Part shown: in pieces, positions 14,730-49,148 of the stretch
Layout: the number at the start of each line of letters is the position of its first letter
Numbering within the stretch: the stretch's first letter is position 1
Source: Isurus oxyrinchus
Lineage: Eukaryota
Direction: 5' to 3'
Assembly (NCBI GenBank): GCA_026770705.1
Contig: JANJGN010000039.1
Coordinates: 4,216,001-4,280,000, forward strand
Length of the DNA: 64,000 bases
Position numbers and translations under genes: made by a program
Notes under the pieces: model-generated
Told to the model about the DNA's origin: nothing
The model's input: the letters and a program-made list of their open reading frames with translations, nothing else
Databases searched by the model: none

Positions 14730-15563
14730 TTTCAATTGTTTAGCAAACAGAACAATTAGAGGAAAGGGATGGTGGAACACATTCGTGAACTGAGCTCTGA
14801 ACCTAGCCTGGGTGATGGTAGGTGTCTGTGCAGGGAGTAAGATGCTGCAGCATTAAATCCAATTCCAGCACAAACACATCTGTCATTGGAGATCGATACC
14901 TCAAATATAACATCTTGTTCCTATAGAATAAAGCATTAGCACTGACCATACAGGAAGGAATTCGTTGAATGTACAATGAACATAATAATGGTTTTCTTTC
15001 AACTTTACATTCCTGGGTCTCTGGGTCTCTTCGTACTGTTGTGAGGCCTGAGTCTCTTCCTGGCTCAGCTGCTCACTAAAATGTGCCTGACAGTGTAAAC
15101 AATGAGCACCAGAATCAGGATAAACGGTACTCTACGGGGTTTAGAATTTCAGGTGTGAACTCAATTGCTGCCGGAACCGCGACAACCAAACACCCCCGCG
15201 TACCTAACAAAACCAGGGGACGTTGCCCAGCACATTCCTGTTACCATAAAATGCCACAACACGTTCTTTGTGCAGATCAGCACAGGCACTGTTTCCAGGA
15301 CGACAGTCGCAGTTTTTCCGGTGCAACATTTACATTTCAGTTTCGGACACTGGCTGCATAAATCAGAACGGTATGGATATTGAACACAGGAATCGACTTC
15401 AGGAAAAGAAGCTGCTTCTGGAAAACAATTGGAATGTGTGTTAATATCATGTCGAGGATGATGATGAGTCGATTCGCCCCTGTCATGGCCACCAGTTAAC
15501 GAGTGATACATTTCGAGAGCCCAGACTTACCCTGCGACAGAATTCCCGACGTCACCAAGTTAA
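14730..15563 (-). pseudogene. GPR139/142-like GPCR pseudogene, exon 2 of a divergent subfamily
   Basis: Acceptor ctctgccttgcag|TT AAC. Reads VNLVTSGILSQGKSGLSKCITR*LVAMTGANRLIIILDMILTHIPIV...IPVFNIHTVLIYAA, then a deletion of the DRF region, then KLKCKCCTGKTATVVL...NVPWFC*...VPFILILVLIVYTVRHILVSS*ARKRLR...TQARFRAQF. Multiple stops and frameshifts. Confidence 0.85.
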
Positions 15564-20300: not shown

Positions 20301-21770
20301 GAAGAATTACATTATGTTTGTTCATGCGCAAAATACAAAGGAATACAAAGGAAGATGTTTATGGTCGGGCCATGAGCGAGTGGACGTTTCATAGCTGGGA
20401 ATTGGTGCGGATATCTGGTGGAAGCTTCACTCGTTGTTTTGATGAGTGGACTTCAAGTTAATAATTTTCAGACGCCACAACATCTGTGAATTGTGATAAC
20501 AAGCATTTGGTGGCCGTGTGTGTGAAAAGACCAGAAAACATGAAACATAGACTGTTGTGTATGAGCATGTGGGGAGGCGGCCGTCCCTGTCTTCGTGAAT
20601 AATTAAGTTTGAGTTTTGCAAGCTTGCAAAGGAATTGTAGGGAAATCCGAAATCAAGATATGGAACCGTCTCTAAGTCCGATAGATCGTGGGAATGAGTC
20701 TTGAATTTACCATATGATCAATTGCGCCAATGCCCAGTCTTTCACAAAGCACGTGATCACCAGGCAGTCTTTGTTTTAATCATGTGATTTATATGGAACT
20801 CTGAGTAGCAGCTCATTGTGCAACAGTCGGATATTTGGGGGGAGCCAGGTTTCATGAAACCTGTTCTGAAAACTGCCCCATATATTATTCGGCCCAGAAG
20901 AGACATTGAAGGGTATTTGTGCTGTTTTTCTATGTTACGCTTGTTCGAGTTATTTTGATCCAGCCTGTGATGTATGGGCTGTTGATCAGAGCATCTGCTC
21001 CAATGAGCTCTATGCGATCAGAGACTGGCATCACAATTCAAACTCTCAAACCCTGCAACTATAACCAGGGTTGTTCAGTAATTTTCTTTTTATTATTATC
21101 ATCATGCCTCAAGTCCACCATTTATTATAGAATAAAGTGAAAAGGAGTTCAATTTGAGACTACACCATGAAAGAGTATTTTCACCTGGGATGTAATTTTA
21201 TCCAGAGTCAGCAGACATCACTTCAAGTATTTTGCTAATGTGACTCCCTTCAGGCACAGTTTTTAAGTCCTCCTGCATATGTCAATTGGTTTTCAGCTGT
21301 AATTTGACTAATTTTACGCACCGTTTCAAAGAGTATTGCATTCCGTTCCTCAGCTCCTCCCTAAACCTAGACTGTGTCAGCACATAAATGAATGTATTTG
21401 TGCAGCAGCTGAGGACCGCAAGCATGATTGCAACTGACCCAAGTTCATTAGTGCCAGAATATGAAATGATTGTTGTATGCAGAGAGAAAACATATGCGAC
21501 TGGAGTAGTCCAGAGCAATATAAAGCTGCCGGTTATACTGAAGAGTAAAATTATGGACTTTCTTCGTCTTTCTATCTCTGGATCATTGTGATGCTCTCCA
21601 TTGCAGCAACCGTTGAGACCCCTGCGAACTCTACTGGCGGCTAAAATACGTCTCACCGTCAAAACATTTAGCAACAAAATTAAAATGAATGGAACAAGTG
21701 GGGTCAAAGTTAGCACAAAGAAATCAAATGCAGCCCATTCAGCAGAACTGAAAAATGTCTGTTTTAGTTT
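17341..21770 (+). repeat. Segment duplicated in inverted orientation at ~48655-53103 (3' half of exon 2 plus downstream flank)
   Basis: Colinear reverse-complement similarity, e.g. 17341-17470 vs 52970-53103, 19700-20050 vs 50350-50720, 20400-21200 vs 49250-50050. Confidence 0.85.
18702..19690 (-). mobile_element. CR1/L2-type LINE 3' kilobase (inverted paralog ~50750-51680)
   Basis: ORF 18982-19398 (KLNWIRHINT...QRLGILRRITHLL...KLKKLDSIKQKA) resembles a LINE ORF2 C-terminus, followed by the 3' tail. Confidence 0.75.
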
Positions 21771-24700
21771 GCAACCGCGAGGTACATTGCCAATTATATA
21801 TGCAGGTTCATAAGCAAAATACCAGGGAATGTTTGTCAAACAACTCAAAACACTCACTACTGATATGACAGCTGCGCCTGTTTTCTCTGTGCAATATTTT
21901 TTTCTCAGTTCCAGACAACATATCGCCACAAAACGATCGAAGGTGAACACCAATGTCAACCAGACAGAGGCTGAAGTGACTACATAAATCAATGTCTCAG
22001 TTAGCTGGCATACCGTGCTCATGGTCAAGAATGAATCCGGAAAATAAATATTCAGCATTTCCTTCAGTATGACTTCAGTACAAATAAACAGGAGATCAGC
22101 CGCTGCCATTGCAATCATATAACATGTAATGCATTTGGAGAGACCACACTTTCTTCTGGAAAGGATGACAATCGCAACAACATTACCTGTAAGTGAGGAA
22201 GAGAGAAGGAGATAGAAGTCACAGATGAACAAGGCAACTTCTCTTGCAGTTGCAGCAAAGGCTCATGCATTTCACCCAAACATGCAGGACCTGCTTCCCG
22301 AGATGAGCATATACTAAATGTGGATTGGACTTAGTAAATGTGGACAGGGAAATGATCATTCCTCTTTTGATAGGAACATCATCAGTTTAAACTGGGCAAC
22401 TAGTGTGCAATAACGATTGAGCTTCTTGAGCGAGAATGTGATGTGGACAATTTGAAGGTACAAAAACGGCTCGGCATGTTGAACTTTAGATAGTAAGTAG
22501 GAGGTGTAAAGAGACAACTAATGTGTGAAGGTGCAATATCATTTGGGAAATAAAGACGCAAAATGGAATCTTGGGAAAGCAGAGTTAGACTCTGGAAGAG
22601 GTAGTCGTGCAATGTGCGCTGCGTGGTTTATGGATGCGGTAAGTATTTGAAAGGGTTGCTGTGACACAGGACTCACAGCTCGTACGTAAATTGTTGCCCA
22701 GCAGCATTGGCATACTCTCAACGCTTGGGAGTGTAAAGATGGAATATTAACTGCACAGGATATGTTAGAATGGTCACTGGGCTACAAAGAAACACTAGCA
22801 TTGACGAGGCTGAACAAGGGTTTACCCAGGAGACTTCACAGATCCGGTCCAATGAGAATCAAAACATGGTGACATTTTTATGCAGATTCTCATTGAAACG
22901 TTGTGGTAGGAGATGAGGGCAGATGAGTCAGGTTTTTTTTTAAGGCAAACTCAGTAATGGAAGATTAATATGCATGCTGGGCATTGTGAAGGTTTAGGTC
23001 AGGTGAATGCATCGCAAATTCATTGCAGAAAAAAAGTGAAGCAATATTTCTTTGCCGACTGTGTATATTTGGTGCTGATCAAGCGGGTAGTTTAATGGCC
23101 GAATGGGAACAGTGACATAGGTATCAGATTAAGTGTGAAATATTTATTGGCCAACGGCAAGGCAGAGTGGGAATTGTGCAGGACCACGCTTCTTTCTGGA
23201 CGGACTAGTTTAAATTGCAGTGAATGGATATCGCAAAAAACAGGGACAATAGGACTCGCAGCGATACAGGACACATTGTTAAAGTGTAGTAAGCAATTCG
23301 AAGATGGGATTCCAGTGTGTTTAAAATCAACTATCTATTCTGGGGAGACAGGGGTACGTTCCCATTGATTGATGAGCTGTATATCAAAGCACTTTTTTTT
23401 TCCGAAAGGGCATAAGGGAGTCACTTGCATGTCATTCACAATATCTGTGAGAAATGATTTGAAATGTGAAGCTGAACACTGACACTTGCAGGACACCAAG
23501 GGCAAAAGTTCCAAGTCGACATGGACCGTGACGGGCCCATCGATTTGAGTAGATAGATTTTTTTAGGTCTAATATATGATTAGAAGAGCAAAACAATGAA
23601 GTGTCGATTACTTGATGATAATGATCTAACTCCTAACATACGCATGGTTAAATTATCATACGTTGCAGCTATTTTCATTTTAGATTGTTTCGGATCATAC
23701 CATCCTTCAATTTTAGCAATATTTGGTAAAATGCATATTTATTTTTCAAAATGCAAGAACATTTTTGTGAATTAGCTATCTAAATCAATGATCTGTTACT
23801 ATACAGAAGACTAAACTGAAAGATTTCTACTAATTACTGATTAAATCCAATAAGCTTTATAAATCAAGCGAAATTGACGTGAGCCTCAGATACTAGTGCC
23901 TGCATCAACGTTTCTGTTGTTTAACTAATAAAACTCCGTAGAATTTTTGAAGAATGGAGTTCCTCACTGAATCTCAATGAACCTATTTGTTGCTGCCATA
24001 CATTTACTAAGTTCATGCACATGTTCATTTATTTATTATCTGCATTTCAAAGCAAGTTAAATAACTCTAATAATTAATATCCAAAGTAAGTAATTGTTCG
24101 CTTCCTAAATTGTGTTTGTGGTTCGGATGCCTATGGTGTAGGATAGGATTTCATGGCTCTTGCAAGGGTACAGAATAGATTTTCGTATGAAATCTCCGGT
24201 TAGACTCAGGATGCCCAAATTCAGGATTATAAAATGCACATTCTCACAAGGAAGGGATGAGTTCAATGAAGTACTAAGTGCTTTGAAGGCTTTGCAACCT
24301 GGAGCAGACAGAAAGTGTAGCTTCCGCAAACTTGTATTTGGGAAAACATCAATGCAATGGAGCAATGTCTATAAACGGGGTGTTGAATTAACATTTTGGA
24401 TCATATTAATTCCTGAGGATGTTCATTATTTTTTTACATGAGCTTTGGAAAAAGAAAGTGGTATTAGTCAGATAAAGATAAACAGAATTTTACATTTTTG
24501 TATCAGCTTGTAAGTTAGATTTATGTTCATTTATCATAAACAAATTATTCCCTGAACAAATCTAGTATTGATATCCTTACAATGGCATGAATTTTCACTC
24601 AGAGTCATAAATATCAATTCGCTTTTTTGAATTAAACAGAGATGGTTAACCAGATTATTAGCACTTGAACCTGTACTTGACAGAACTGTAAATAAGGAAA

Positions 24701-26320
24701 CAGTTAAAAATAGGAAAAAGACAGTAATTTTAACAATTATATACTGAAGCAGCAAATGTTGGAACAAATTAATTATCAAAACTAATATCCAATAAATTAT
24801 CCACATGTTTCTAGAAGTTTCTTCTACATTAAACATTGAAATGCCCCAGGAATGAACCACAGAATTTCTAACGAATTCAACGGTGAATTATCCAAACCAT
24901 TATACATCATTTTATCTGTGAAATTAAGTGTACAGATATCAAGTATATTATCCACATAAGCCCCTGATCAAATAACTCGAGAATTGAACATTTATATAGG
25001 CTGCACAATTGCTATCTGAAAATGCAATCTGCTTCTCTTATTGATTTGCTATTTGTGAAAAGAAACATAGAGCAGGTTCAATGCACATTGACCTATATGC
25101 CTCTTGGAGTGGTTTCTGTAAATACCCCAGTCTGATGAACTACAGAGCGATTTAGTTTCTGCCACTTTCCTAAGTCTATGTCACTTCAAGAGCGTTGTTT
25201 GCTTCGTAATGTAAGCACAAATTAACATTTATCTGTGGCATCATTTGTATGCAATGCAGATCCTAAAGTTCAAATTCATTTTAGGGACGTTGTGAATGCT
25301 CTGGCTAAAGCAAAACAGAGTGAGATCCACTGAACAGTGTTTTTGGTTATGACACATTGCTGCAGACTCGGTAGCAACACTAACAGTAGAAAGACAGGCC
25401 AAGACACCCGGTGCAGGTTAAAAACGCTGAACGTGATTTACGTTCATAAAGCAACGTTACATCAAGTAGGCATCAGACTGGATTTCACGTTTTTCGGCGT
25501 TGTGATATTGGGTAAATGCAAAATGAGTGGCCTACTCCCTCTTGTCCCACTCATCCTCCCTTAGGCGGCCTCCATCTCGTCAATCCATCCAATTCCGGGG
25601 AAGAGGCAATGAAAGGTGCAAAATTGTGTCCGCATCCAATCGGCAGTGAACGCCTGGACCTCATGCAGCAGAGTGTAATGCTGCGAACAGAGAGTTGCTA
25701 TGGCTATAAGCTCAAAACAACCTATACTCAGACATTTTTTTGAAAAATACTTTTCATTCAATGCTCAGGCAAGAAACGAAAAAGTGAGAAAAAAAGCATG
25801 AAGATGATGCATCTTCTCCAGCACAATCTGCTGCTACATTCGATCATGCTCCTGGAGGCAGGAGTTCCCCACCGCTCTTTGCCCGTCTCACAATAGCTGC
25901 ACAAAAACACTTATTTTTCTCATCCGAGCCACAGCAAATGCAATGCACCAAACAGCACAACATACGATTGGTTTACTGACAAGCTCAATAACCTGTTAAT
26001 AAGTAACTTGAGAATGGTTGACCCGCCCATTCTCCATCTGCAATTGGGGAGAACTAAGTACACGACACCATTATACTCGATGCAGGTATCTGATATTTGT
26101 GCCGATTCAACGTTTTCGATGGGGGTGGGTGATGCTGGGGAGTGAGGGTGGTAAGCGGGGTGGGTGCGAGGGGTGAAGGGGAGTGTGAGTGTGTAGGTTT
26201 GAGCTGCAATTTGAGGAGAAATGTCCAGCCCATCGTTTCGGCTACAGATTTAGGTATTCAGGAACGAATTGAAGATATACATCCTCAGTTGGGAACCAGA
26301 CTACTGCGAAAGGATTTGAA
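20421..26320 (+). repeat. Tandem duplication unit A (~5.9 kb)
   Basis: About 99% identical to 26330-32231 (offset 5909 at the start). Begins gaagcttcactcg and ends aaggatttgaa. Confidence 0.95.
21282..22186 (-). CDS. Intact coding exon 2 (copy A) of a GPR139/GPR142-like class A orphan GPCR (rest of TM1 through TM7 and C-tail)
   Basis: Acceptor ctcttcctcacttacag|GTAAT (phase 1) and an open frame to TGA. Motifs GN..AIVILSRRKCGLSKCIT, MAAADLL, FTFDRFVAICC, PWYF, PFILILLLN, LLWTTP, CCTNTFIY, FREEL. AATAAA at 21121-21126. The 5' end of track ORF 21282-22232 is intronic read-through. Confidence 0.9.
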
Positions 26321-26329
26321 CTGTTGTGT

Positions 26330-29300
26330 GAAGCTTCACTCGTTGTTTTGATGAGTGGACTTCAAATTAATAGTTTTCAGACGCCACAACATCTGTGAAT
26401 TGTGATAACAAGCATTCGGTGGCCGTGTGTGTGAAAAGACCAGAAAACATGAAACATAGACTGTTGTGTATGAGCATGTGGGGAGGAGGCCATCCCTGTC
26501 TTCGTGAATAATTAAGTTTGAGTTTTGCAAGGTTGCAAAGGAATTGTAGGGAAATCCGAAATCAAGATATGGAACCGTCTCTAAGTCCGATAGATCGTTG
26601 GAATGAGTCTTGAATTTACCATATGATCAATTGCGCCAATGCCCAGTCTTTCACAAAGCACGTGATCACCAGGCATTCTTTGTTTTAATCATGTGATTTA
26701 TATGGAACTCTGAGTAGCAGCTCATTGTGCAACAGTCGGATATTTGGGGGGAGCCAGGTTTCATGAAACCTGTTCTGAAAACTGCCCCATATATTATTCG
26801 GCCCAGAAGAGACATTGAAGGTTATCTGTGCTGTTTTTCTATGTTACGTTTGTTCGAGTTATTTTGATCCAGCCTGTGATGTATGGGCTGTTGATCAGAG
26901 CATCTGCTCCAATGAGCTCTATGCGATCAGAGACTGGCATCACAATTCAAACTCTCAAACCCTGCAACTATAACCAGGGTTGTTCAGTAATTTTCTTTTT
27001 ATTATTATCATCATGCCTCAAGTCCACCATTTATTATAGAATAAAGTGAAAAGGAGTTCAATTTGAGACTACACCATGAAAGAGTATTTTCACCTGGGAT
27101 GTAATTTTATCCAGAGTCAGCATACATCACTTCAAGTATTTTGCTAATATGACTCCCTTCAGGCACAGTTTTTAAGTCCTCCTGCATATGTCAATTGGTT
27201 TTCAGCTGTAATTTGACTAATTTTACGCACCGTTTCAAAGAGTATTGCATTCCGTTCCTCAGCTCCTCCCTAAACCTAGACTGTGTCAGCACATAAATGA
27301 ATGTATTTGTGCAGCAGCTGAGGGCCCCAAGCATGATTGCAACTGACCCAAGTTCATTAGTGCCAGAATATGAAATGATTGTTGTATGCAGAGAGAAAAC
27401 ATATGCGACTGGAGTTGTCCAAAGCAATATAAAGCTGCCGGTTATACTGAAGAGTAAAATTATGGACTTTCTTCGTCTTTCTATCTCTGGATCATTGTGA
27501 TGCTCTCCATTGCAGCAACCGCGGAGACCCCTGCGAACTCTACTGGCAGCTAAAATACGTCTCACCGTCAAAACATTTAGCAACAAAATTAAAATGAATG
27601 GAACAAGTGGGGTCAAAGTTAGCACAAAGAAATCAAATGCAGCCCATTCAGCAGAACTGAAAAATGTCTGTTTTAGTTTGCAACCGCGAGGTACATTGCC
27701 AATTATATATGCAGGTTCATAAGCAAAATACCAGGGAATGTTTGTCAAACAACTCAAAACACTCACTACTGATATGACAGCTACACCTGTTTTCTCTGTG
27801 CAATATTTTTTTCTCAGTTCCAGACAACATATCGCCACAAAACGATCGAAGGTGAACACCAATGTCAACCAGACAGAGGCTGAAGTGACTACATAAATCA
27901 ATGTCTCCGTTAGATGGCATACCGTGCTCATGGTCAAGAATGAACCCGGAAAATAAATATTCAGCATCTCCTTCAGTATGACTTCAGTACAAATAAACAG
28001 GAGATCAGCCGCTGCCATTGCAATCATATAACATGTAATGCATTTGGAGAGACCACACTTTCTTCTGGAAAGGATGACAATCGCAACAACATTACCTGTA
28101 AGTGAGGAAGAGAGAGAAGGAGATAGAAGTCACAGATGAACAAGGCAACTTCTCTTGCAGTTGCAGCAAAGGCTCATGCATTTCACCTAAACATGCAGGA
28201 CCTGCTTCCCGAGATGAGCATATACTAAATGTGGATTGGACTTAGTAAATGTGGACAGGGAAATGATCATTCCTCTTTTGATAGGAACATCATCAGTTTA
28301 AACTGGGCAACTACTGTGCAATAACGATTGAGCTTCTTGAGCGAGAATGTGATGTGGACAATTTGAAGGTACAAAAACGGCTCGGCATGTTGAACTTTAG
28401 ATAGTAAGTAGGAGGTGTAAAGAGACAACTAATGTGTGAAGGTGCAATATCATTTGGGAAATAAAGACGCAAAATGGAATCTTGGGAAAGCAGAGTTAGA
28501 CTCTGGAAGAGGTAGTCGTGCAATGTGCGCTGCGTGGTTTATGGATGCGGTAAGTATTTGAAATGGTTGCTGTGACACAGGACTCACAGCTCGTACGTAA
28601 ATTGTTGCCCAGCAGCATTGGCATACTCTAAACGCTTGGGAGTGTAAAGATGGAATATTAACTGCACAGGATATGTTAGAATGGTCACTGGGCTACAAAG
28701 AAACACTAGCATAGACGAGGCCGAACAAGGGTTTACCCAGGAGACTTCACAGATCCGGTCCAATGAGAATCAAAACATGGTGACATTTTTATGCAGATTC
28801 TCATTGAAACGTTGTGGTAGGAGATGAGGGCAGATGAGTCAGGTTTTTTTTTAAGGCAAACTCAGTAATGGAAGATTAATATGCAGGCTGGGCATTGTGA
28901 AGGTTTAGGTCAGGTGAATGCATCGCAAATTCATTGCAGAAAAAAAGTGAAGCAATATTTCTTTGCCGACTGTGTATATTTGGTGCTGATCAAGCGGGTA
29001 GTTTAATGGCCGAATGGGAACAGTGACATAGGTATCAGATTAAGTGTGAAATATTTATTGGCCAACGGCAAGGCAGAGTGGGAATTGTGCAGGACCACGC
29101 TTCTTTCTGGACGGACTAGTTTAAATTGCAGTGAATGGATATCGCAAAAAACAGGGACAATAGGACTCGCAGCGATACAGGACACATTGTTAAAGTGTAG
29201 CAAGCAATTCGAAGATGGGATTCCAGTGTGTTTAAAATCAACTATCTATTCTGGGGAGACAGGGGTACGTTCCCATTGATTGCTGAGCTGTATATCAAAG

Positions 29301-32231
29301 CACTTTTTTTTCCGAAAGGGCATAAGGGAGTCACTTGCATGTCATTCACAATATCTGTGAGAAATGATTTGAAATGTGAAGCTGAACACTGACACTTGCA
29401 GGACACCAAGGGCAAAAGTTCCAAGTCGACATGGACCGTGACGGGCCCATCGATTTGAGTAGATAGATCTTTTTAGGTCTAATATATGATTAGAAGAGCA
29501 AAACAATGAAGTGTCGAAAAATTGATGATAATGATCTAACTCCTAACATATGCATGGTTAAATTATCATACGTTGCAGCTATTTTCATTTTAGATTGTTT
29601 CGGATCATACCATCCTTCAATTTTAGCAATATTTGGTAAAATGCATATTTATTTTTCAAAATGCAAGAACATTTTTGTGAATTAGCTATCTAATTCAATG
29701 ATCTGTTACTATACAGAAGACTAAACTGAAAGATTTCTACTAATTACTGATTAAATCCAATAAGCTTTGTAAATCAAGCGAAATTGATGTGAGCCTCAGA
29801 AAATAGTGCCTGCATCAACGTTTCTGTTGTTTAACTAATAAAACTCCGTTGAATTTTTGAAGAATGGAGTTTCTCAGTGAATCTCAATGAACCTATTTGT
29901 TGCTGCCATACATTTACTAAGTTCATGCACATGTTCATTTATTTATTATCTGCATTTCAAAGCAAGTTAAATAACTCTAATAATTAATATCCAAAGTAAG
30001 TAATTGTTCGCTTCCTAAATTGTGTTTGTGGTTCTGATGCCTATGGTGTAGGATAGGATTTCATGGCTTTTGCAAGGGTACAGAATAGATTTTCGTATGA
30101 AATCTCTGGTTAGACTCAGGATGCCCAAATTCAGGAATATAAAATGCACATTCTCACAAGGAAGGGATGAGTTCAATGAAGTACTAAGTGCTTTGAAGGC
30201 TTTGCAACCTGGAGCAGACAGAAAGTGTAGCTTCTGCAAACTTGTATTTGGGAAAACATCAATGCAATGGAGCAATGTCTATAAACGGGGTGTTGAATTA
30301 ACATTTTGGATCATATTAATTCCTGAGGATGTTCATTAATTTTTTACATGAGCTTTGAAAAAAGAAAGTGGTATTAGTCAGATAAAGATAAACAGAATTT
30401 TACATTTCTGTATCAGCTTGTAAGTTAGATTTATGTTCATTTATCATAAACAAATTATTCCCTGAACAAATCTAGTATTGATATCCTTACAATGGCATGA
30501 ATTTTCACTCAGAGTCATAAATATCAATTCGCTTTTTTGAATTAAACAGAGATGGTTAACCAGATTATTAGCACTTGAACCTGTACTTGACAGAACTGTA
30601 AATAAGAAAACAGTTAAAAGTAGGAAAAAGACAGTAATTTTAACAATTATATATTGAAGCAGCAAATGTTTGAACAAATTAATTATCAAAACTAATATCC
30701 AATAAATTATCCACATGTTTCTAGAAGTTTCTTCTACATTAAACATTGAAATGCCCCAGGAATGAACCACAGAATTTTCTAACGAATTCAACGGTGAATT
30801 ATCCAAACCATTGTACATCATTTTATCTGTGAAATTAAGTGTACAGATATCAAGTATATTATCCACATAAGCCCCTGATCAAATAACTCGAGAATTGAAC
30901 ATTTATATAGGCTGCACAATTGCTATCTGAAAATGCAATCTGCTTCTCTTATTGATTTGCTATTTGTGAAAAGAAACATAGAGCAGGTTCAATGCACATT
31001 GACCTGTATGCCTTTTGGAGTGGTTTCCGTAAATACCCCAGTCTGATGAACTACAGAGCGATTTAGTTTCTGCCACTTTCCTAACTCTATGTCACTTCAG
31101 GAGCGTTGTTTGCTTCGTAATGTAAGCACAAATTAACATTTATCTGTGGCATCATTTGTATGCAATGCAGATCCTAAAGTTCAAATTCATTTTAGGGACG
31201 TTGTGAATGTTCTGGCTAAAGCAACACTGAGTGAGATCCACTGAACAGTGTTTTTGGTTATGACACATTTCTGCAGACTCGGTAGCAACACTAACAGTAG
31301 AAAGACAGGCCAAGACACCCGGTGCAGGTTAAAAACACTGAAAATGATTTACGTTCATAAAGCAACGTTACATCAAGTAGGCATCAGACTGGATTTCACG
31401 TTTTTCGGCGTTGTGATATTGGGTAAATGCAAAATGAGTGGCCTACTCCCTCTTGTCCCACTCATCCTCCCTTAGGCGGCCTCCACCTCGTCAATCCATC
31501 CAATTCCGGGGAAGAGGCAATGAAAGGTGCAAAATTGTGTCCGCATCCAATCGGCAGTGAACGCCTGGACGTCATGCAGCAGAGTGTAATGCTGTGAACA
31601 GACAGTCGCTATGGCTACAAGCTCAAAACAACCTATACTCAGACATTTTTTTGAAAAATACTTTTCATTCAATGCTCAGGCAAGAAACGAAAAAGTGAGA
31701 AAAAAAGCATGAAGATGATGCATCTTCTCCAGCACAATCTGCTGCTGCATTCGATCATGCTCCTGGAGGCAGGAGTTCCCCACCGCTCTTTGCCCGTCTC
31801 ACAATAGCTGCACAAAAACACTTATTTTTCTCATCCGAGCCACAGCAAATGCAATGCACCAAACAGGACAACATACGATTGGTTTACTGACAAGCTCAAT
31901 AACCTGTTAATAAGTAACTTGAGAATGGTTGACCCGCCCATTCTCCATCTGCAATTGGGGAGAACTAACTACACGACACCATTATACTCGATGCAGGTAT
32001 CTGATATTTGTGCCGATTCAACATTTTCGATGGGGGTGGGTGATGCTGGGGAGTGAGGGTGGTAAGCGGGGTGGGTGCGAGGGGTGATGGGGAGTGTGAG
32101 TGTGTAGGTTTGAGCTGCAATTTGAGGAGAAATGTCCAGCCCATCGTTTCGGCTACAGATTTAGGTATTCAGGAACGAATTGAAGATATACATCCTCAGT
32201 TGGGAACCAGACTACTGCGAAAGGATTTGAA
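26330..32231 (+). repeat. Tandem duplication unit B (~5.9 kb)
   Basis: Near-identical to 20421-26320. A 9-nt filler ctgttgtgt (26321-26329) lies between the units. Confidence 0.95.
27191..28095 (-). CDS. Intact coding exon 2 (copy B) of a GPR139/GPR142-like GPCR; joined to exon 1 at 37033-37102 it gives a 324-aa 7TM receptor
   Basis: Same acceptor (cttacag|GTAAT). 905 nt + 70 nt = 975 nt in frame, junction codon G|GT = Gly. Same motifs as copy A. AATAAA at 27030-27035. Confidence 0.9.
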
Positions 32232-32399
32232 TTAAAACATGCATGTTGCAGTCTGTCTTAGTTTAGTGCTACAAAGTAAACATACAGGAACGTCCTTTCG
32301 TATCAAATGACAAACACATTCATAGATCCGGCATTATGCAGCACTTTCTTTTTGGGAAATCATTGGTAGGATCAGCATTTTTCCGAGAGCAGATATTAT

Positions 32400-35330
32400 T
32401 CTTCTTGCTGTCCATGTGATGCGGTTGCACACACAGTGTTACGAGTGATGGATTTACAGGTGTTTGATCCAGTGGCATTCAGGGAACGCTGATGTGTCTC
32501 GGAGTCAGTATGGGGTGTGACTTGGAAACGATTTTGCAATAAGAGTGTTCCCATGCCACTTCTGCTCGTATCCTTCCAGGCTTTCGAAGTGAAGTGCTCG
32601 AAAGGATTACTTTTGCCGACACCTGTCATATATCAGGAGTTGCTGCAATCATACCTAACAACGGGGCTTTGACCTGGTGAATTGTGAGACAGGACGACTT
32701 GCATGCAGAGCAGTGGATGCAGAATGTGATTGACAGGGTTAATTGATCCAACCAGCAAATAACGTTAACTTAGCTCTGAAGTTCTGCTCATGCCATCTTG
32801 AATGATGTTGGACAGAGCAGCGAATCAAGGGTGGTGGACACCCCACCAACATCCACATCGACAATGATTGTGGGGCGCAGCACATCAGTGCATACACATG
32901 GCTCAAGAACTTGCTGCCATATTCAGACTGACATGAAGGGAGGGTGAATCATCCCGTCCGCCTTCTGAGGATGAGAGCGTCACAGATGCCAATTTTGAGC
33001 TAATGTGATTCACTGCCCTTCATCTAAAGGAATGACTGAAGGAACGGGATGATGCAGAGATTATGGGTCCTGTCAGATACCGGCAATCGTCCGGGTGATC
33101 AGTGCTCCCGAATAAATCTTCCTAGATAACCTGGTATAGGACAGCTAAAACACTGGCATCTAAGCGAAAATGTAAGCAGTCACACAGCTGGGTCTATCCA
33201 CAAAAACAAAACTCGTCAAATCGGACCAATAATTACCCCCTTATCCCCTATTCTTCATCATGAACATATTGATGGAATCGGTCACGGGCATTGCTTTCAA
33301 ACGCCACGTACTAGCGAGCAACATGCTCACTGACGACCATTTTCTGCTTCGTATGAGCTCCAACTCTCGGTTCGGCCTTAAACCGAACATGGTCAAAAGT
33401 GCTGAATTCACGAGGGGAGTGGAGAGCGGATGTTATTTACATCAAGACAACATTTGACATTCTGTGGTAAGAAGGAGATATATCAGGATTCAGGTCAATA
33501 AACATAATGGGGAAGCATCTCCATTGATTGCTGTCATACCTATCACAAAGAAGACTTTTTTTGTTTTGTTTCTCAGGTGAATCATCTCATCCCGATGAAA
33601 GCACTGCACGAGATCCTATGGGCAGTGTCCTGAGTCAAACCACCTTAATCTGCTTCATCAATTAACTTCTTTGCAACATATGCCCAGAGGAAGTCTTATG
33701 GTAGCAGAGTGAGTGGCAGGAGTGTCCGCTGATGATTGTTTAAATTTCAAAACCATTCGCGACTCAACAGATGCTGAAGAAATCTTGCCCGTGTCCACCA
33801 AGACCTGGGCAATATCGAGGATTCTGCTGAAAACTGACAAGTCATATTAGACACACAACCGACAGGAAATGACCACCTACGAAAAAAAAAGTGTTCAACA
33901 ATTTCTCACAGATACTTAATGGTATCACCATCGTTTAATTCTCCATTTTGAAGATCCACGGAAAAAACATTGACTAGAAACTGTGACTAGAAGCGCAAGT
34001 CAGGACTGGGAATTCCGTGGCGAGGACATACCCGCCTGACTCTGCAAAACCTTCACTCCATCTATAATGTACAATTCAGGAAACTACTGGAATAAACAAC
34101 AGTTTTCTGGATGAGTTCTGCTTCAATAATATTCAACAATATTGAACTAATCCACGGCAAATCAGGCTGCTTGTTTGACAACTAATGCTTAGCTTTAATG
34201 ATTCAAGCTGTTTATCTCTAGCGAATAGCTATTCTTACTGGTTTTAAAGTTCATCTAAACCATCAGCCAACACCTGAGGAAAATAACTTCATCGAAAACG
34301 GGAATTTAGGCTTCTCCCAATTCCATTGTTGCTTTCCTAAATATCATTTGGCCACGCCTCTCCGTTCACTGATCACCATTTTTCAGAGCACTAAGAGCAC
34401 GGGAAACTTATATTCAACCTCATGGCATTATGTAAAACACGGGCACTGAATATTCCCTTATGTTGACCACCTCCCGTTCCCCTCAGATGATGAATGAATG
34501 AGCATCCATGGACGAATCATAGAATCACAGAATCACAGTGCACAAGAGGCACTTCAGCCCTTCGAGTCTGCACTGGCATGTGCAAAACACCTGTCCTGAC
34601 TACTTAATTACATTTACCAGAAATTGACACATAGCCTTGAAGGTATTGATGTGCCAAGTGCTCATCCAGTTACTTTTTAAAGGATGTGTGGCAATTTGTC
34701 TCTACCACCCTGCCAGGCAGCGCATTAGAGACATTCAACAAACTCAGGGGAAAAAGGTTTTTCCTCCGATCCCTCCTAAATTACCTGCACCTCACGCTTA
34801 ACCTATGCACTCTTGTGGGGCATAAAACGAAGTTTTGGTGAGTGGCAAGAAACAAAAACTATTGTATGCAGGTGCTGTCATCGTCTATGACCAAGACAGG
34901 TTCGGTAGCACCACTAACGGCCGATCAGGCCGAGTCAGACATATAACCGCTGGATTGGGTCTTTGGAAGGTGATCAGGGAACCAACAAGGTGCAAAGACC
35001 GAAATGAACACGCCTCACCAAAAGTCAAGCAACATATGCACCTGCCCATTACAGGAATGATAGGATAGGCCACCGCATGCTCCTTGTGCAGACGTAGTCG
35101 GCCTTCACATTGGAAAGTTCCTCCATCGTATAATGTGACACCACCTTTGTGCGATATGGGGTAGTTTTCAATCTGATCAGCAACATAAAAGTGGGCATTC
35201 ATTAGGCAATTTGTGCCATATGCTAGACCAGGGATGTGCACAACCATAATTTGCAATTCCAAACCCAATCTATCTCCAACTCCTCAATTTTCATGTGGCA
35301 TTATTATGGTGATGGTTGTGGTGCAGGACA
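32400..35330. mobile_element. Nested, degenerate CR1/L2-type LINE fragments in intron 1 (paralogous blocks at ~45760-48400 inverted and ~59870-62460)
   Basis: Endonuclease-like GSTTNGRSGRVRHITAGLGLWKVIREPTR (ORF 34835-35068) and RT remnants at 33260-33840. A CR1-type (ATTCTRTG)n tail is read as aatcatagaatcacagaatcacag at ~34516. Confidence 0.7.
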
Positions 35331-37032
35331 GGCATTCCAAATTCTCCTTTTGGCGTGAGATTTTGCGCTGTTGTTATAGCTGTGCTACAATGATTGTTAA
35401 CCAGATAAGTCCTTGAATTACTGGGAGTTAGCTGGGATATTCCAATGTGGTGACATTGACGAGACTGAACCTATGCTTTCTGGAGCTTTGCCAAATGAGA
35501 AATGATCTCACTGAATCATAGACCGTTCTTACAGGGTTCGATGTTATAGATGTTGGAGGGATGTGCCCCTGGCTGATGTGTCTAATATCATGAGAATCAG
35601 TATCAGAATAACAGGTGTGCATTTAGGGCCGATATGAGGGGGAATTTCTTCACTCAGAGAGCAGCGAATGTTTGAAATTATGTCTCCCAACAGCGGCAGA
35701 GGCTCAGTCATTGGGAATGTTGAAGGCAGAGCGATGAACCATTTTCTAAATGTTAAATGCGTCCAGAGATATGCGATAGTGCAAGGAAATGAATTGAATG
35801 CATGTTTACAGCCATGATATAATTGAGTAGTTGAACAAGCTCAAGTGGCCAAATTGTTAACTTGTGCTCCCACTGCCTCTGCCTCTATGCTCTTTTGTCA
35901 GAACCTGCATGTCACTTAGCAATGCGAGATTCAAAAAGAGACAGGGGAGTCCGAAAATGCTTTAATCCAACTAATTTCAATCCTCAATACAAATCAATTG
36001 TACTTGCAAGTTTGATTTACATCAGCAGGTAGTGGAGGACGAGAAATTGAATGGAGCAGAATATGCAGAACCAAATAACTACTTGCGGTGTGTAGATGTT
36101 TCAAAATCGGGCCACTTATGGCTCAGTCAGTTGAAATCTCCGTGCTGAGATAGATGTTTAACGATTTGCTTCCGGCACCAGGACTTCAGAACAAAGTTCT
36201 CGGCTAATGTTCCAATGTCTTAGTAAATTAATTCTGCACTTCCACAAGCAGAACCTTTAAGAAAAGATGTCAAATTGATTCACGAGGAAAACGTAAAAAG
36301 ATTCAATTCCACTTTTTCCAGGAGCAACATTGTTGTAGCCCCCTGTGTCCTGAACGAAATTTATACCTCAGCTAAAATCCACAAAATAATACAATCCGGT
36401 CATTGTTAACATTATGTCTATGGAAGCTTAAAGAGCACAAATCACGCTTACTTTAAGTAATTCCATCAATGTGTTCGTGAACAAAGGCTGTTGAAAATCA
36501 TTTGTATCAATATACAAGTGAGTAAGACTTCAGAATGTCTTAATCACACACAGCATCGTGATTCAGCCAAGTTTTCAGATTTCGTAACTTCACACTGATT
36601 TGTAAAAATATCGCTGTTAAAAAGTACGTGATTTGACAGGGATCCTGTTGCTTGCGATATTGGAAAACAGGGGAAAACCGTGAGCAAACACTTTCAAATA
36701 GTTCAAGCTGAATTCTGCAGAATGCGAATTTGCCCTTGCATTGATTTTCATAGACACGTCTTATCTCCAAGTTTAAAGACGGTCTGCACTTGGTCATGAC
36801 AATTATTGCAGAGCGCACCCAAATTCAAGAAATTCCCCAAAGAATAAATACGGTGTCAACACTCTAGAATGATGCATGAAAGATGAAGCAATAGTAAGAA
36901 AACAGTTAACGTGACACCTAAACTTTGATAACTCTCCAACAGAAAAGGAACGGTTTCACGTTACCAGCAACACCATTTGAGAAGAAAGTCAATATTCATT
37001 TATACGTCCACTGATTGTGTTTAGGCTCTTAC

Positions 37033-37102
37033 CAGGTACACCAACAGCTGCGAGAATCGGGTAGTAAATGGCTTCTATCTTGAGAAGTATCAGTTCTCCC
37101 AT
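37033..37102 (-). CDS. Coding exon 1 of a GPR139/GPR142-like GPCR gene (MGELILLKIEAIYYPILAAVGVP + 1 nt)
   Basis: ATG GGA GAA CTG ... GGT GTA CCT G|GTAAGA. Its phase-1 donor matches the phase-1 acceptors at 28095 and 22186. Confidence 0.85.
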
Positions 37103-39049
37103 TTTTATGAGAAGCTGTCTTTCCTCCTGAGATGGGTAAAAAAGGATGGAATGGAACGATGTGAGCTGGAACTTACAAACATACCCTTCTCCTTTGAATT
37201 AATATCAGAAACTTAAAATAAACAATTTAACATCACTGCCGAGACTCGGAAGGAGATATCACATTAATTAACCCCAGAATATAAGGGGAAAACTCTCACC
37301 AAAGCATTCGTAACAGGGAAGAGAGAAAACCTGCTACATTTTACAGACATGAAGCCCTGTACATAAACACCCAAACCCACGTCCGCTACCACCTAGAAAG
37401 ACAAAGGTAACATAGACATGAGAAAGCCACCACCAGTAGCTCCTCTCCAAACCCCTCACCGACGGATTTGGAAATATATCACTGTTCCTTCACTGCCTCT
37501 GTGTCAAAGTACTGGACCTCCCCCTTATAACACAGACTACAGCAGCTCAAAAACGCATCTCACTACCATCTTTTCAAGGACAAATAGGGATGGACAATAA
37601 AAGCTGGCCTCGCCAGCTTCGCCCACATTCAATGAATGGATAGAATAAGAGAAATTCCTATTGTTAGCCTGGGTTTGTGAAAATAAACGTACATTAGACA
37701 ACGAGAACTTCGACAATTGGTTTGTAAATGTCCCGTATCTGACAAATTGCAATAAAGGCTATTTGCTGTGAGAAGCGCTAATTGAAGCAGAATCACTGAG
37801 TCTTTTGGAGAACATGAAATGATCCGTTCAGAGAAACTGTTATTTATACAACAGTTAAATCCCCATTAGCTCATTCATGTTCCCTGAAGAAATAAATCAA
37901 TTTCAGTCATTGAAGAAGCAGGTTACGTCAGTCTCTCTCCTTGTGAAAGCAACCACTTCAAAGTGAAACGTCCAATATTGGACCGATGTCTGTGGTCAAA
38001 CCAGTGGAAGGGGCTGCATGTTTTGATCAATGGGTAAATATTATCGGAGGTGGTCAGGGCAGGAAAAGATTAAACCACGAGTCGCTGTTGCGGGGAAAGT
38101 CATCACTAATTTACATCAAAATGAAGCTTAGCAACTCAATGTTCCTGATCCTCCAGACCTAATGGGGAAATTTCAGATGTTCCCCATTGTTTTGAGTTTC
38201 TGGTCTCATTCTATGTTCCAACAAGGCACTGTGTGATCCTTGTCATTGACTTTCAAGCTCCCAGATGGAAGACGTACGCTGCACTGATCATTCCATGGAT
38301 TACGCTGGCACTGACAACTCCATCGGTTACTAGGCCTACAATCCATGGCGTTGCATAGAAATTTGCGCCCTTCCACCTGGAAGTTATAAATACACGCGGA
38401 GGACGTGGAGGGTTTGTCTTGGTTAATTATGTGATGTGTAACACAAGCTGTATGGAGAAGGAGTTTCTTTTCTCAACCAGAATACTTCAAAATAAAGTGT
38501 TCAAGATGATTCCGATCCCATAAATGCTCAATATCCATTCCTGAAGCAGCCAATCATGCTACAGCACCCACTCACATATTCCATCCAGAGAGATGTTTGG
38601 GCTGATTGAAAAACGATTTTTTCTATAAAATTGTATGATAACGAGAGTACAACGCTGGGAGAATATTTCACGTTGAACATTGAACCCTTGGCCCTCAAAT
38701 GTCTTCTGCCGACTGTCATTGTCCTATTGAGTCACTCATTACAATGAACCCGAAATGTCGTCGCCTCCAGCTGTTGGTTCATGCTGCATTTCATACATGG
38801 CCAACAACACAAGAATTAAGGGCAGGAGTAGGGCATTCGCTCCCTTGAGTCTGTGCTGCAGCTCGGAAAGAAAATGATTTTACCTGATCGTGGCCTCAGC
38901 TCCATTTTCCTGCCTGCACTCCTCCAACTAGCATCACACACCCTACCCCTCCACTGCCCCCTGAAAACACACACATACATCCTCATGACCCCAATATCCA
39001 TTATTCGTCAATAAGCTATCCAAATCACTCTTGAATGTGAGGCCTCCCT

Positions 39050-41000: not shown

Positions 41001-43548
41001 AAAGCAATATTATTTGTAAGAATATACTTCTGTAGCTATGAACATGATGGGGTGTAAGACATTTGCTTCATGCAACAAATAGCCACTGAAGGATAGTAGG
41101 TAATTTCAACTGTGAGGCAGAAAGAGTTTTTTGTGATAATTTGAAAAAAAGAACAGTAACGAAATGAATTTCCACATGCGAGTATTGTGCTCGCATAGAA
41201 CTGGAAATCTCTCCTGACAAATCCTCTTTAATATGGGATCAGAGATAACGGCCTAGAATTCGGACCCTGACATTCGCTCCAGGTAGCAAATGATACATTT
41301 GAGATGCAATAGTTTCCTCGCAACAGGAACAAAAACGTCACCAAGTTACCTGGAAGAGAGAATAAAGAGGAAGAAACAGAAGTGTTTCACCAGACGTGGA
41401 GCCAAGGGAACAGTTTGCCTTGAAATGTCCTAAAACCCTCCGTTCTTTGCGGCATTTAACATATAAACTGATAATTGGCCTGGGAAACATATTCAGTCAC
41501 AAAAATGTATCTAAATCCCATTATTAAAAACTGCTCGGACAATCACAAACATAAAGTGAACAATCTTTGCACACAATCCACAGAAAGTGCTAAGTGAGGG
41601 AACTGTGTTCAATAAACGCATTCAAGTGAAAGCGAATATATGGATGAAAATGAGACTTAGCTCCACACTCAGTATTTGTTTGTAACAAGGCAGTCGGAGG
41701 TGCAGGTCGTTTGTTCCTATGCGTCACAAGGATCAACAGTGGGCTTTAGAAAACGGGAACAGCCTGAGAGCCACGGCTGGGAGCTTCAGTTTCTGGAAGG
41801 AGTTCGATGTGGAAGCTGGAGGTCGAGCCTGTGAGAGATCCAAACTGGGGGCAGGCAATGAACACTGCTTTCAAGACCTTGAGGCAGATGCACTGTTGGA
41901 ACAGGAGGACATGGTTTAGGGACGAGGGGAAACTGAAGTAATGGTGGATTGAAAGAGCAAGTGATTTCCTCTTTCAAAAGGAGATTAAGCTGCACAGGGT
42001 AATGGAATACGAATTTAGAGTAGAAGTAGAGAAACCGGCTCCTCAAGCCAGCCCCGCCATTCAATAACATTATGGTTCATATGATTGTGGACGCAATTCC
42101 ACATTCCCTCCACCTCCAATAACATTTGATACCCTTGGGACGCAAGAGAATATCTGTCTCTGCCTGAATAGATATCCAATCAGCCTCCCTACACAGCACT
42201 TGCGGGACGAGAGTTCCAAAGCCCTTGAACACTATGACTGAAAAAAATCGCTTCCACCTCCCTTTCAGCGGGAGACCCACAACTTGAAAACTGTTCTCCC
42301 TTTGCTCCAAACTCCACGACAAGGGAAACTTTCTCTTTGCATCCAATATGGACGATGTCTCAGGATCTAACCTATTTCAAAGCACCTCTCATTTTCCAGA
42401 CTCCAATAACAAATGTTGACAAAGTTTCTGAGTAAGTTAACACCCAAACCACCAAAACCCTCCACCAACCCAGCATCACAAGTATCTGCAGACTGAATGT
42501 TATATCAACTGATTCTAATTAGTTGATATCCTTTCTTAAATTTGGAGACCAAAACTGTGCACAGTACCTTAGATGTGATATCGGCAACGTTCTACACAAC
42601 TGCAGTAAGACATCACTACTTCAATAATCAATTTCCTTTGCAATTAACAAAGTACAGAATTCTATTTGCCTTGCTGTACTTGCATATTAACATCGTGTGT
42701 CATGAGAAATCTATGAATTGCAATAACACAACTGATGTGACTTTGAACTGTGAGCCTGTGTGGCTCTTGTCCAGAGAGAGAGAGAGAGAAACTTCTGAAT
42801 AAGCAGTTTCATGTAAATATATACATAGTATTTTGACAACATTTCGATTAATGAAGATGACTGATAAACACATTGTCCTTCATTGAATTTTGCAGGCACA
42901 TATTGCTAACCCATTGTGCTAATAGTGAGACACCATCATTGAATATTGTTTCTATTTAATCCGTTCTAAAAAATAATGGCAAATGAGCATCCATTACAGC
43001 AGGTTTCGAATTCGAAAGTGATAAACACATATCGGGAATGATGAAACTCATCTGACCTGGAAGATCCGCACCATGTCTTCAAATCTCAATATTTCACGGT
43101 GTCTTCTTTTTCACTGGTGATGGTGCCATCCCTGGAAATTTCGGAAGTGAGAGGCAGAATTTCATTTGTCGTTGATAGAACGGCGAGACATGTATTCTAC
43201 AAACACGTTGAATTTATTTAATACGTTCGCAGATGGATGTGTTTTTGAGTATTTAGTGAATTTAGGAATATGGTCACAGTACGGGAAGATCGATTTGAGA
43301 TAGAAGATCACTTGATTGGCGGAGGAGACTCGAAAGGCCAATGCCTTTCTCCAGCTCATGTTTTATATGTTCTCCCAATGTACATGTCGTACTGGTTCTT
43401 ATCCGTCGTGAAGATTGCTCGTTTGAAATGTTCTATCAAGCTTTTAGCCACCAGTGTATTGCATCCTGTTGATCGTAGAGACGAGCAGCTATGTGCCCCG
43501 ATTTTGCAGAGGGTCGTTTTTATTGCTGGTGGTTTGGGTGCCAGATGA

Positions 43549-45757
43549 ATCTCCTCTGGGGATCTCCCTCCCACAGCTTCCAACCTGATAGTCGCCCAAC
43601 CTCGGACGGCCTGCTTCTATCTCCTACCCAAAATCCACAAACAGAACTGCCCAGGTAGACCAATCGTCTCAGCTTGCTCCTGCCCCACAGAACTCATTTC
43701 TCGTTATCTTGACTCCCTTCTCTCTCACCTTGTCCAGTCCCTTCCCACCTACATCCGTGGTTCCTCTGACACCTTACGTGACATCAACAATTTTCAGTTC
43801 CCTGGCTCCAACCGCGTCCTCTTCACCATGGACATCCAATCCCTCTACACCTCCATCCCCCACCAGGATGGTCTGAGGGCTCTTAGCTTCTTCCTCGAAC
43901 AGAGGCCCGAACAATCCCCATCCACCACTACTCTCCTCCGTCTGGCTAAACTTGATCTCACGCTGAACAATTTCTCCTTCAACTCCTCTCACTTCCTCCA
44001 AATAAAAGGTGTGGCTATGGGTACCCGCATGGGCCCCAGCTATGCCTGTCTCTTTATGGGGTATGTGGAACATTCCTTGTTCCAGTCCTACTCCGGCCCC
44101 CTTCCACAACTCTTTTTCCGGTACATCGAAGATTACTTCGGTGCCGCTTCATGCTCTCGTCGGGACTTGGAAAAATTTATTGATTTTGCTTCCAATCTCC
44201 ACCCCTCAATCATTTTCACGTCGTCCATCTCTTTCACTTCCCTTCCCTTCCTTGAGCTCTCTGTCTCAATCTCTGGTGACAGACTGTCCATCAATATCCA
44301 TTACAAACCCACTGACTCCCACAGCTATCTTGACTACAGCTCCTCACACCCCGCTTCCTGTAAGGACTCCATCCCATTCTCTCAGTTCCTTCGCCTCCGT
44401 GGCATCTGTTCCGATGATGCTACCTTCAAAAACAGTTCCTCTGACATGTCCTCCTTCTTCCTTAACCGAGGTTTTCCACACACGGTCATTGACAGGCCCA
44501 CAACCATGTCCAGCCCATCCCCCACACATCTTCCCTCACGCCTTCTCCTCCCTCCCAGAAACATGATATTGTCCCCCTTGTCCTCACTTATCACCCCACC
44601 AGCCTCCGCATTCAAAGGATCATCCTCCGCCATTTCCGCCAACTCCAGCATGATGACACCGCCAAACACAACTTCCCTTCACCCCCCCTTTCAGCATTCC
44701 GTAGGGATCGCTCCCTCCGGGACACCCTGTTCCACTCCTCCATCACCCCCTACTCCTCAACCCCCTCCTATGGCACCACCACTTGCCCACGCAAAAGATG
44801 CAACGCCTGCCCCTTCACTTCCTCTCTTCTCACTGTCCAAGGGCCCAAACACTCCTTTCAAGTGAAGCAGCATTTCACTTGCATTTCCCCCAACTTAGTC
44901 TACTGCATTCGTTGCTCCCAATGTGGTCTCCTCTACATTGGAGAGACCAAACGAAAACTGGGCGACCGCTTTGCAGAACTCCTGCGGTCTGTCCACAAGA
45001 ATGAGCCAAACCTCCCTGTCGCTTGCCATTTTAACACTCCACCCTGCTCTCTTGCCCACATGTCTCTTCTTGGCTTCCTGGATTGTTCCAGTGAAGCCCA
45101 ACGCAAACTGGAGGAACAACACCTCATCTTCCGACTAGGCACCTTACAGCCTTCCGGACTGAATATTGAGTTCAACAACTTTAGGTCGTGAGCTCCCTCC
45201 CCCATCCCTGCCCCCTTTCTGTTTCCCCCTTCCTTTTCTTTTTTTTTTCCAATAAATTATATAGATTTTCCTTTTCCCAGCTGTTTCCATTATGAAAAAA
45301 ATATATATTTTTTTACATCTTTTATGCTCTCCCCAGCCCAACTAGAGCTATACCTTGAGTGCCCTACCATCCATTCTTAATTAGCACATTCGTTTAGATA
45401 ATATCACCATCTTTAACTTTAACACCTATGTGTTCTTTTGTACTATTGTTGTTGACATCTTTTGATGATCTGCTTCTATCACTGCTTGTTTGTCCATACA
45501 ACCACACTCCCACTCCACCTCTCTCTCTCTCTCTCTCCGCCCCCCCCCCCCGCCCCCCCTCCCCACACACACACCTTAAACCAGCTTATATTTCAACTCT
45601 TTCTTGGACTCCAACTCAAGTTCTGTCAAAGGGTCATGAGGTCTCTAAAAGTCAACTCTTTTTTTCTCCGCTGATGCTGCCAGACCTGCTGAGTTTTTCC
45701 AGGTAATTCTGTTTTTGTTTTGGATTCCCAGCATCCGCAGTTTTTCTGTTTTTATAT
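43549..45757 (+). mobile_element. 5'-truncated Penelope-like retroelement: reverse transcriptase + GIY-YIG endonuclease + terminal repeat; inactivated
   Basis: FYLLPKIHK..PGRPIVS, MDIQSLYTSI, GVAMGTRMGPSYA, FRYIED (catalytic YIDD changed to YIED), HYKPTD. Frameshift near 44497. GIY-YIG NLVYCIRC..CGLLYIGETKR..LGDRF (44862-45191). Terminal ...gatgctgccagacctgctgag...gcatccgcagttttt. Confidence 0.92.
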
Positions 45758-48654: not shown

Positions 48655-49148
48655 ATTGTGTCCTAAAACATACATTTTTCATTTCTGCTGAGTGGGCCAC
48701 ACTTGAATTTATTACCCTTACCTTGACCCCATGTGTCCCATTCATTCTAATCTTGTTGCTAAATGTTTTGACAGCTAGGCGTATTTTGGCAGCCAGTAAA
48801 GTTCGCAGGGGTCTCCATAGTTGCAGTAATGGAGAACATCACAAGGACTCTGAAATAAAAAGCCGAAGAAAGTCCATTGTTTTACTCTTCAGTATTACCG
48901 GCAGCTATATATTGCTCTGGACAACACCTGTTATATATATTATCTCTCTGCATGTAACAATTACTTCAAATTCTGAGGCAAATGATCTTAAGTCAGTTGG
49001 ATTCATGCTAGGGGACCTCACTTGCTGCACAAATGCATTCATTTATGTGCTGACACAGGCTAGGTTTAGGGAGGAGCTGACGAGCGGAATGCAGTACTTT
49101 GTGAAACTGAGCGCAAAACTATGCAAATTACAGTGGATAACCCATTGA
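48655..49148 (+). pseudogene. 5'-deleted GPR139/142-like GPCR pseudogene (ECL2 to TM7 only), inverted relative to the other copies
   Basis: CVLKHTFFISAEWATLEFITLTLTPCVPFILILLLN...LLWTTP...CCTNAFIY..FREEL, stop at 49146-49148. The sequence immediately upstream matches intron 1 (reverse complement of ~23420-23680), so the acceptor and TM1-TM4 are deleted. Confidence 0.85.

Follow-up and report, generated by a model that had tools for sequence, protein, structure and literature searches.

At the UGT1A locus, alternative promoters drive variable first exons that are joined to shared 3' exons. Clustered protocadherins likewise combine alternative promoters and variable first exons with shared 3' exons (PMC8373072). 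LAMP2, TPM1, TPM3, GNAO1, and NECTIN2 have a common 5' part and a duplicated last exon, each copy of which carries an acceptor, a stop, and a polyadenylation (poly(A)) signal, and such C-terminal swaps arise by duplication of the 3' coding sequence together with alternative poly(A) use (PMC8373072). C-terminal regions are swapped in 77 of 236 human tandem-exon substitutions (PMC9741552). In olfactory receptor genes with split coding regions or shared 5' exons, an intron lies in the N-terminus or helix 1, and one 5' exon can be spliced to a neighboring receptor body; chimeric transcripts were described at 11 loci each in human and mouse, with one intact coding prediction (10.1101/774612). Here, we examined a 64,000-nt stretch of Isurus oxyrinchus DNA (contig JANJGN010000039.1, positions 4,216,001 to 4,280,000; hereafter the window, numbered from its first base), in which a single short first exon of a G protein-coupled receptor (GPCR) gene is followed by two tandem copies of the second exon, copy A and copy B. 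Our analysis suggests a young partial duplication in which copy A is, on balance, a promoterless spare exon, spliced rarely if at all and drifting to decay.

The gene is composed of the following parts:

37033 to 37102, minus strand: coding exon 1, 23 codons plus 1 nt, with a phase-1 donor (G/GTAAG)
28096 to 37032, minus strand: 8.9-kb intron between exon 1 and copy B
27191 to 28095, minus strand: coding part of exon 2 copy B, proximal and intact, the likely main body
26998 to 27035, minus strand: two AATAAA hexamers 3' of the copy B stop
21282 to 22186, minus strand: coding part of exon 2 copy A, distal and intact, without an exon 1 of its own
21089 to 21126, minus strand: two AATAAA hexamers 3' of the copy A stop

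Coding exon 1 is 70 nt long (37102 to 37033), the acceptors lie at 28095 (copy B) and 22186 (copy A), and the stop codons end at 27191 and 21282, respectively. Joining exon 1 to either copy yields an open frame for a 324-aa class A GPCR, so that both predicted splices bear out the original prediction of one exon 1 with two intact, phase-compatible exon-2 copies. The exon-2 body matched the Pfam family 7tm_1 with an E-value of 3.6e-23 (82.8 bits, compared with a cut-off of 30.5). Copies A and B are separated by 6 amino-acid and 6 silent codon differences. Their acceptors are the same except for a pyrimidine tract that is 2 nt longer in copy B, and the AATAAA hexamers after the stop are identical.

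This is the geometry of alternative last exons: each copy of the terminal exon brings an acceptor, a stop, and a poly(A) signal and is in phase with the shared exon 1. The mechanism is already known; the unusual feature here would be that the swapped part makes up 93% of the protein. The LAMP2-type cases are supported by transcripts and mostly ancient (PMC9741552), whereas the shark copies are 1.4% apart and known from DNA alone. The olfactory receptors resemble the locus in the position of the intron and in the sharing of a 5' exon with a neighboring body, but they belong to another GPCR family, their shared exons are untranslated, and their chimeras are mostly not intact (10.1101/774612). 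Like the protocadherins and UGT1A, the locus combines a part common to all products with several tandem variable parts, but its polarity is reversed, with one promoter, one exon 1, and two 3' bodies. The earlier description of the locus as a mirror image of that organization is overstated for a two-copy event of 1.4% divergence and fails on both polarity and scale.

We built an exon-1 profile from 74 family N-termini and ran it over the window. Only two stretches matched, 37102 to 37034 (30 bits) and 1381 to 1313 (26 bits); no third exon 1 was found with this profile, the next best score anywhere in the window being 4 bits. The second match belongs to a separate paralog:

1312 to 1381, minus strand: exon 1 of paralog E, with its body beyond the window

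Because this exon lies downstream of copy A, it cannot serve it. The original prediction that no exon 1 lies at 22187 to 27190 holds, with a best profile score of -2.5 bits there. From the copy A acceptor to the copy B stop, the DNA is entirely a duplicate of the copy B intron and 3' flank, plus 9 nt, and therefore hides no private exon 1 upstream of copy A.

A search for relatives gave 2297 matches at E ≤ 0.001, dominated by chondrichthyans; the best 120 are all from sharks and rays and mostly labeled 'probable GPR139' in RefSeq models. The closest are lamniform, P0001 from Cetorhinus (75%) and P0002 from Carcharodon (74%). The model of P0001, a 75% identical stand-in for copies A and B, has seven helices and helix 8 (pLDDT 79, pTM 0.77), with helix 1 at residues 2 to 34. 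Exon 1 encodes the N-terminus and roughly two thirds of helix 1, and copy A has its first Met at residue 49 of the open frame, past this helix. Since the intron after codon 23 cuts helix 1 and the first Met of copy A follows it, a whole receptor from copy A needs exon 1, as judged from the modeled fold. Readings in which copy A forms a separate gene, whether through an unseen 5' exon or promoter or through translation from an internal Met, are very unlikely. Relatives with alternative N-termini on one body do exist (P0079 and P0121, isoforms X2 and X1), and 7 of the 120 models lack an N-terminus upstream of the body, but the DNA upstream of copy A is copied from copy B without an exon-1 match, and an internal start would omit helix 1.

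The two copies lie in head-to-tail units that differ by 84 substitutions and 3 small indel events over 5.9 kb:

20421 to 26320, no strand assigned: unit A of the duplication, a 98.5% match to unit B
26330 to 32231, no strand assigned: duplication unit B, comprising the 3' flank, exon 2, and 4.1 kb of intron
26321 to 26329, plus strand: junction filler of 9 nt without N, which with the preceding A equals 26460 to 26469
26460 to 26469, plus strand: probable filler template, about 131 bp inside the breakpoint, also found at 20551 to 20560 in unit A

Comparison of the units agrees with the earlier claim that the duplication took exon 2 with its acceptor, stop, and AATAAA but not exon 1. The junction filler matches neither flank, and a 10-mer copy of it was found about 131 bp away. 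For random k-mers of the window, the chance of a match within 300 bp of either breakpoint was 0.3% (10-mers) or 1.1% (9-mers). A junction insertion copied from the nearby flank points to template-switch end joining of the polymerase theta type, of which templated insertions are a hallmark (PMC7368036). Neither Tandem Repeats Finder, which reported 4 short arrays in the window, placed an array at the duplication breakpoints, nor did an Rfam scan of the window give a match.

Two alleles of one locus assembled in tandem would also appear as copies A and B. The assembly is scaffolded, with a single run of N in the window (130 at 63232 to 63361), and spurious exon gains within one scaffold are among the known assembly errors (PMC9516828). 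However, the false duplications described there are separated by assembly gaps, whereas the junction here is gapless and carries a filler with the mark of templated-insertion repair (PMC7368036). The differences between the copies are also even rather than patchy (variance/mean of 0.83), and the longest identical run is not unusual (P 0.53). We therefore regard a false duplication as quite improbable. With a gapless junction and templated filler, mis-assembly is unlikely and the 5.9-kb tandem duplication is probably real; two tandem copies rather than mis-assembled haplotypes, as the original prediction supposed, look likely. Gene conversion between copies A and B was considered separately and rejected, as there is no long identical tract.

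The duplication is young as judged by sequence divergence. Copies A and B differ by 1.4%, whereas three contigs of a related organism, organism B, that fall inside the unit differ from copy B at 53 of 1178 bases (4.5%), which places the duplication after the split from organism B. These contigs carry the A-type letter at 7 sites among those listed, indicating that copy B is derived at these sites.

We searched sequencing runs with the stretch 26250 to 28150. Among the 24 runs listed, 20 contained part of it; none was an RNA run, and the search has no bearing on expression. The share of its words was 0.51-0.58 in four runs of sample S1, which may be the source of the window, and about 0.2 in runs of organism B. 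The S1 share falls short of the 0.76-0.92 that random collapse of two copies present in the sample would give, but it carries little weight, as contigs show presence and not absence. We also placed contigs of four DNA runs on 26250 to 37300 (copy B and exon 1), with 50-76% of three runs read; contig depth was not taken as copy number. A-type letters appear in 11 of the 40 rows listed for S1, four of which may derive from paralogs, and two long S1 contigs agree with copy B at four further diagnostic positions. In run X1, the seven longest near-identical contigs differ from copy B at 25 of 2580 bases; copy A differs at 37. Run X13 (share 0.20) gave a single contig near copy B and was set aside as too thin for use. 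The S1 mixture of letters and its low word share would suit a false duplication, but the mixture fits either collapsed copies or sequence predating the duplication, in a relative or another haplotype, and the low share is a weak hint of the latter. Among the pieces listed from the four DNA runs, none covered the filler or the joint from 32231 to 26330, a result without weight either way. A very high-copy short repeat lies in the intron at 34630 to 34700, where summed contig depth exceeds 60,000 in three runs.

To the extent that divergence reveals selection, there is no sign that it acts on both copies. Coding sequence differs at 13 of 905 positions (1.44%) and the flank at 71 of 4995 (1.42%). 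In simulations at flank rates, the frame of a neutral copy survived in 62% of cases, and in 39% if copy A was assigned all of the change. Because the copies inherit their phase and a neutral copy would so often remain open, the open frame of copy A is not evidence of use; that both frames are open and in phase is true, as originally stated, but is no more than chance would give in so young a duplicate. The coding changes comprise 7 replacement and 6 silent changes, compared with a neutral expectation for both copies of 9.4 and 3.4. At an assumed omega of 0.3, models with one, neither, or both copies under constraint give 7 replacements with probabilities of 0.14, 0.11, and 0.017, respectively.

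We then compared the copies with their relatives in a protein tree of 28 rows (4 from the window and 24 relatives chosen from 163), in which A, B, P0001, P0002, and two further bodies in the window, paralogs C and D, form one well-supported clade. The end branch of copy A is 0.022 and that of copy B is 0.002. Against P0001 and P0002, copy A is derived at residues 128, 215, and 280 and copy B at 281, while 74 and 84 are ambiguous. Residue 215 is Asn in copy A and Arg in 108 of the 120 relatives. Overall, these sequences give no sign of selection keeping copy A, and the pattern would fit at most one constrained copy.

The reading that we favor, with moderate confidence, is that of a young partial duplication that left copy A as a spare exon without a promoter, used seldom or never and decaying by drift. 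In this scenario, one break-repair event with a template switch would have copied intron, exon 2, and 3' flank, leaving the 9-10 nt filler. Polymerase starting from the single promoter would reach the acceptor and poly(A) signals of copy B first, and most transcripts would end there. In general, the proximal site wins where signals are equal. Copy A could be reached only by skipping the equal acceptor of copy B, over 14.8 kb, and would be used by leaky skipping at most; it would still be open because too little time has elapsed to break it. A donor-like site at 27096 (minus strand) in the 3' untranslated region of copy B could splice copy B transcripts onto the copy A acceptor, leaving copy A untranslated. 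Such joined transcripts would probably trigger decay. Of the two possibilities raised originally, a promoterless, not-yet-decayed exon is the better supported, given that openness is expected by chance, that the signals of copy B are equal and come first, and that other bodies are broken: of six family bodies in the window, A and B are intact and C, D, F, and G are broken (4 of 6).

The other possibility is that exon 1 is functionally spliced either to copy B or, past copy B and its poly(A) site, to copy A, making two receptors 6 residues apart. We consider this unlikely. All cis signals of copy A are intact, the mechanism is known from human tandem 3' duplications with alternative poly(A) use (PMC9741552, PMC8373072), and olfactory receptor genes share 5' exons with their neighbors (10.1101/774612). 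Still, no sequence feature favors copy A over copy B, the model with both copies constrained is the least likely of the three at the assumed omega, functional human cases are mostly ancient (PMC9741552), only one chimeric olfactory receptor transcript predicts an intact coding sequence (10.1101/774612), and the remaining family bodies in the window have not stayed intact. The geometry for a choice between two receptors is present, but no result favors regulated use of both.

Whether the arrangement extends across the family was assessed from gene models of relatives. The chondrichthyan 'probable GPR139' proteins resemble the locus in having a short first exon ending in GVP, followed by a body beginning N-x-x-x-I-V-I-L, with about 324 aa in all, and a canonical exon 1 is present in 81 of the 120 models. 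We examined 10 clusters, chosen by isoform names, size, or closeness, of which 7 had multiple members. Most of the clusters checked carry an exon 1 for each body, unlike this locus with one exon 1 and two intact bodies. In four of the multi-member clusters, exon 1 is found in 11 of 12, 7 of 7, 5 of 7, and 7 of 7 members; with exon 1 in nearly every member, whole-gene duplication appears to be the usual unit there. Partial duplication also seems frequent in the family, as part of the body is present in duplicate in 10 of 48 long gene models. Two apparent examples of sharing were discarded: the Hemitrygon 'isoform X1/X2' pairs have different N-termini on one body, and the shared N-termini among the 120 relatives are explained by whole-gene paralogs.

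A Heptranchias contig of 12,247,937 bases (P0084 and P0133-P0141; XP_067835359-XP_067835421) stands apart, with 10 intact bodies that are 93-100% alike and a canonical exon 1 only in P0136. Seven of its models share an odd upstream piece, which we take to resemble a LINE esterase fragment. The cluster may reflect either orphan bodies arranged in an array or a failure of exon-1 prediction. One exon-1 model for 10 bodies would favor alternative last exons, but an absent exon 1 may simply mean that a far-upstream 70-nt exon was not predicted. If the family diversified by multiplying exon 2 downstream of one promoter and exon 1, with last-exon choice among near-complete receptors, our locus would represent a newborn cassette with two bodies, and the Heptranchias contig would carry a larger one; we hold this to be very unlikely.

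Several observations weigh against copy A as a drifting spare exon. Nothing is broken in its acceptor, frame, stop, or poly(A) signals. The replacement-to-silent split lies below the neutral one, although not significantly (P 0.11), and the comparison of constraint models depends on the value chosen for omega. The longer branch of copy A would also be compatible with positive selection, and paralogs C and D suggest that codon 215 changed once per copy and not twice in copy A. Residue 281, one of those that distinguish the copies, aligns with the pocket residue L275 (7x42) of GPR139, which would also suit two functional receptors. Among relatives, 39 of the 120 models have no canonical exon 1, and in three multi-member clusters exon 1 was found in only 1 of 10, 0 of 5, and 0 of 2 members. 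Finally, the silence of copy A is inferred from sequence, as is the reality of the duplication, whose junction was seen in none of the read pieces listed.

If copy A is indeed a promoterless spare, the locus cleanly captures one moment in the birth-and-death evolution of a large shark GPCR family, and counting open exon-2 frames would overcount genes. It would also be a natural test of the immediate use of a new last exon, with 13 coding letters to tell the copies apart. A family-wide cassette, if true, would generate receptor diversity from one promoter, the reverse of the protocadherins, in a lineage described as poor in GPCRs (PMC8455134).

The GPR139 label fits the receptor only loosely. 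A fold search with the P0001 model returned class A receptors (TMq 0.67-0.79), with the GPR139 chain 7vui ranking 38th among class A receptors at 15-21% identity. Human GPR139/GPR142 is the second-best solved-structure match (E 3.9e-9) and has Trp 6x48, Tyr 7x53, and a non-Pro residue at 7x50 in common with the locus; a functional mark of GPR139/GPR142 proper is activation by Trp/Phe. However, Arg at 6x51, the defining residue of GPR139 and GPR142 (PMC8807744), is replaced by Pro252 in A, B, and P0001. This Arg is present in 9 of 58 other relatives, and position 6x51 is highly variable across the family. Judged by these residues, 'probable GPR139' is a loose best-hit name. We found no published description of the chondrichthyan expansion in a search at the level of titles and abstracts that covered few subscription journals, and the available portions of PMC6504862 and PMC12208981 do not cover it. 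Six long models of relatives (P0179, P0189, P0190, P0193, P0194, and P0195) fuse the GPCR with immunoglobulin (Ig), MHC class I, NLR, or integrin alpha-X domains; these fusions are probably prediction artifacts, and they suggest that the family often adjoins immune genes.

The remaining family pieces in the window are as follows:

55045 to 55951, minus strand: exon 2 of paralog C, with a frameshift near 55330; its exon 1 would fall just beyond the window
48648 to 49148, plus strand: paralog D, 3' half of exon 2 only, with no exon 1 found
14739 to 15561, minus strand: relic F, a distant, decayed exon 2 with stops and frameshifts and no exon 1 found
41060 to 41300, minus strand: fragment G, a faint exon 2 whose best piece scores 11 bits

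Homologous intron stretches flank paralogs C and D. Paralog D is part of an inverted copy at 45765 to 53103 (about 70% alike), in which a single deletion took about 4.3 kb of intron together with the 5' half of exon 2. A 250-bp block (37704 to 37953), located about 600 bp upstream of the exon-1 start codon, is 93% alike between the two exon-1 paralogs, compared with a background of about 84%, and is a candidate promoter or untranslated exon. A Penelope-like retroelement at 43549 to 45191 (plus strand), with matches to RVT_1 (E 2.4e-6) and to a GIY-YIG-like tail (E 0.0097) in two frames, sits about where exon 1 of paralog D would be expected. A second Penelope-like piece, 88% alike, occupies 63362 to 64000 and adjoins the N gap.

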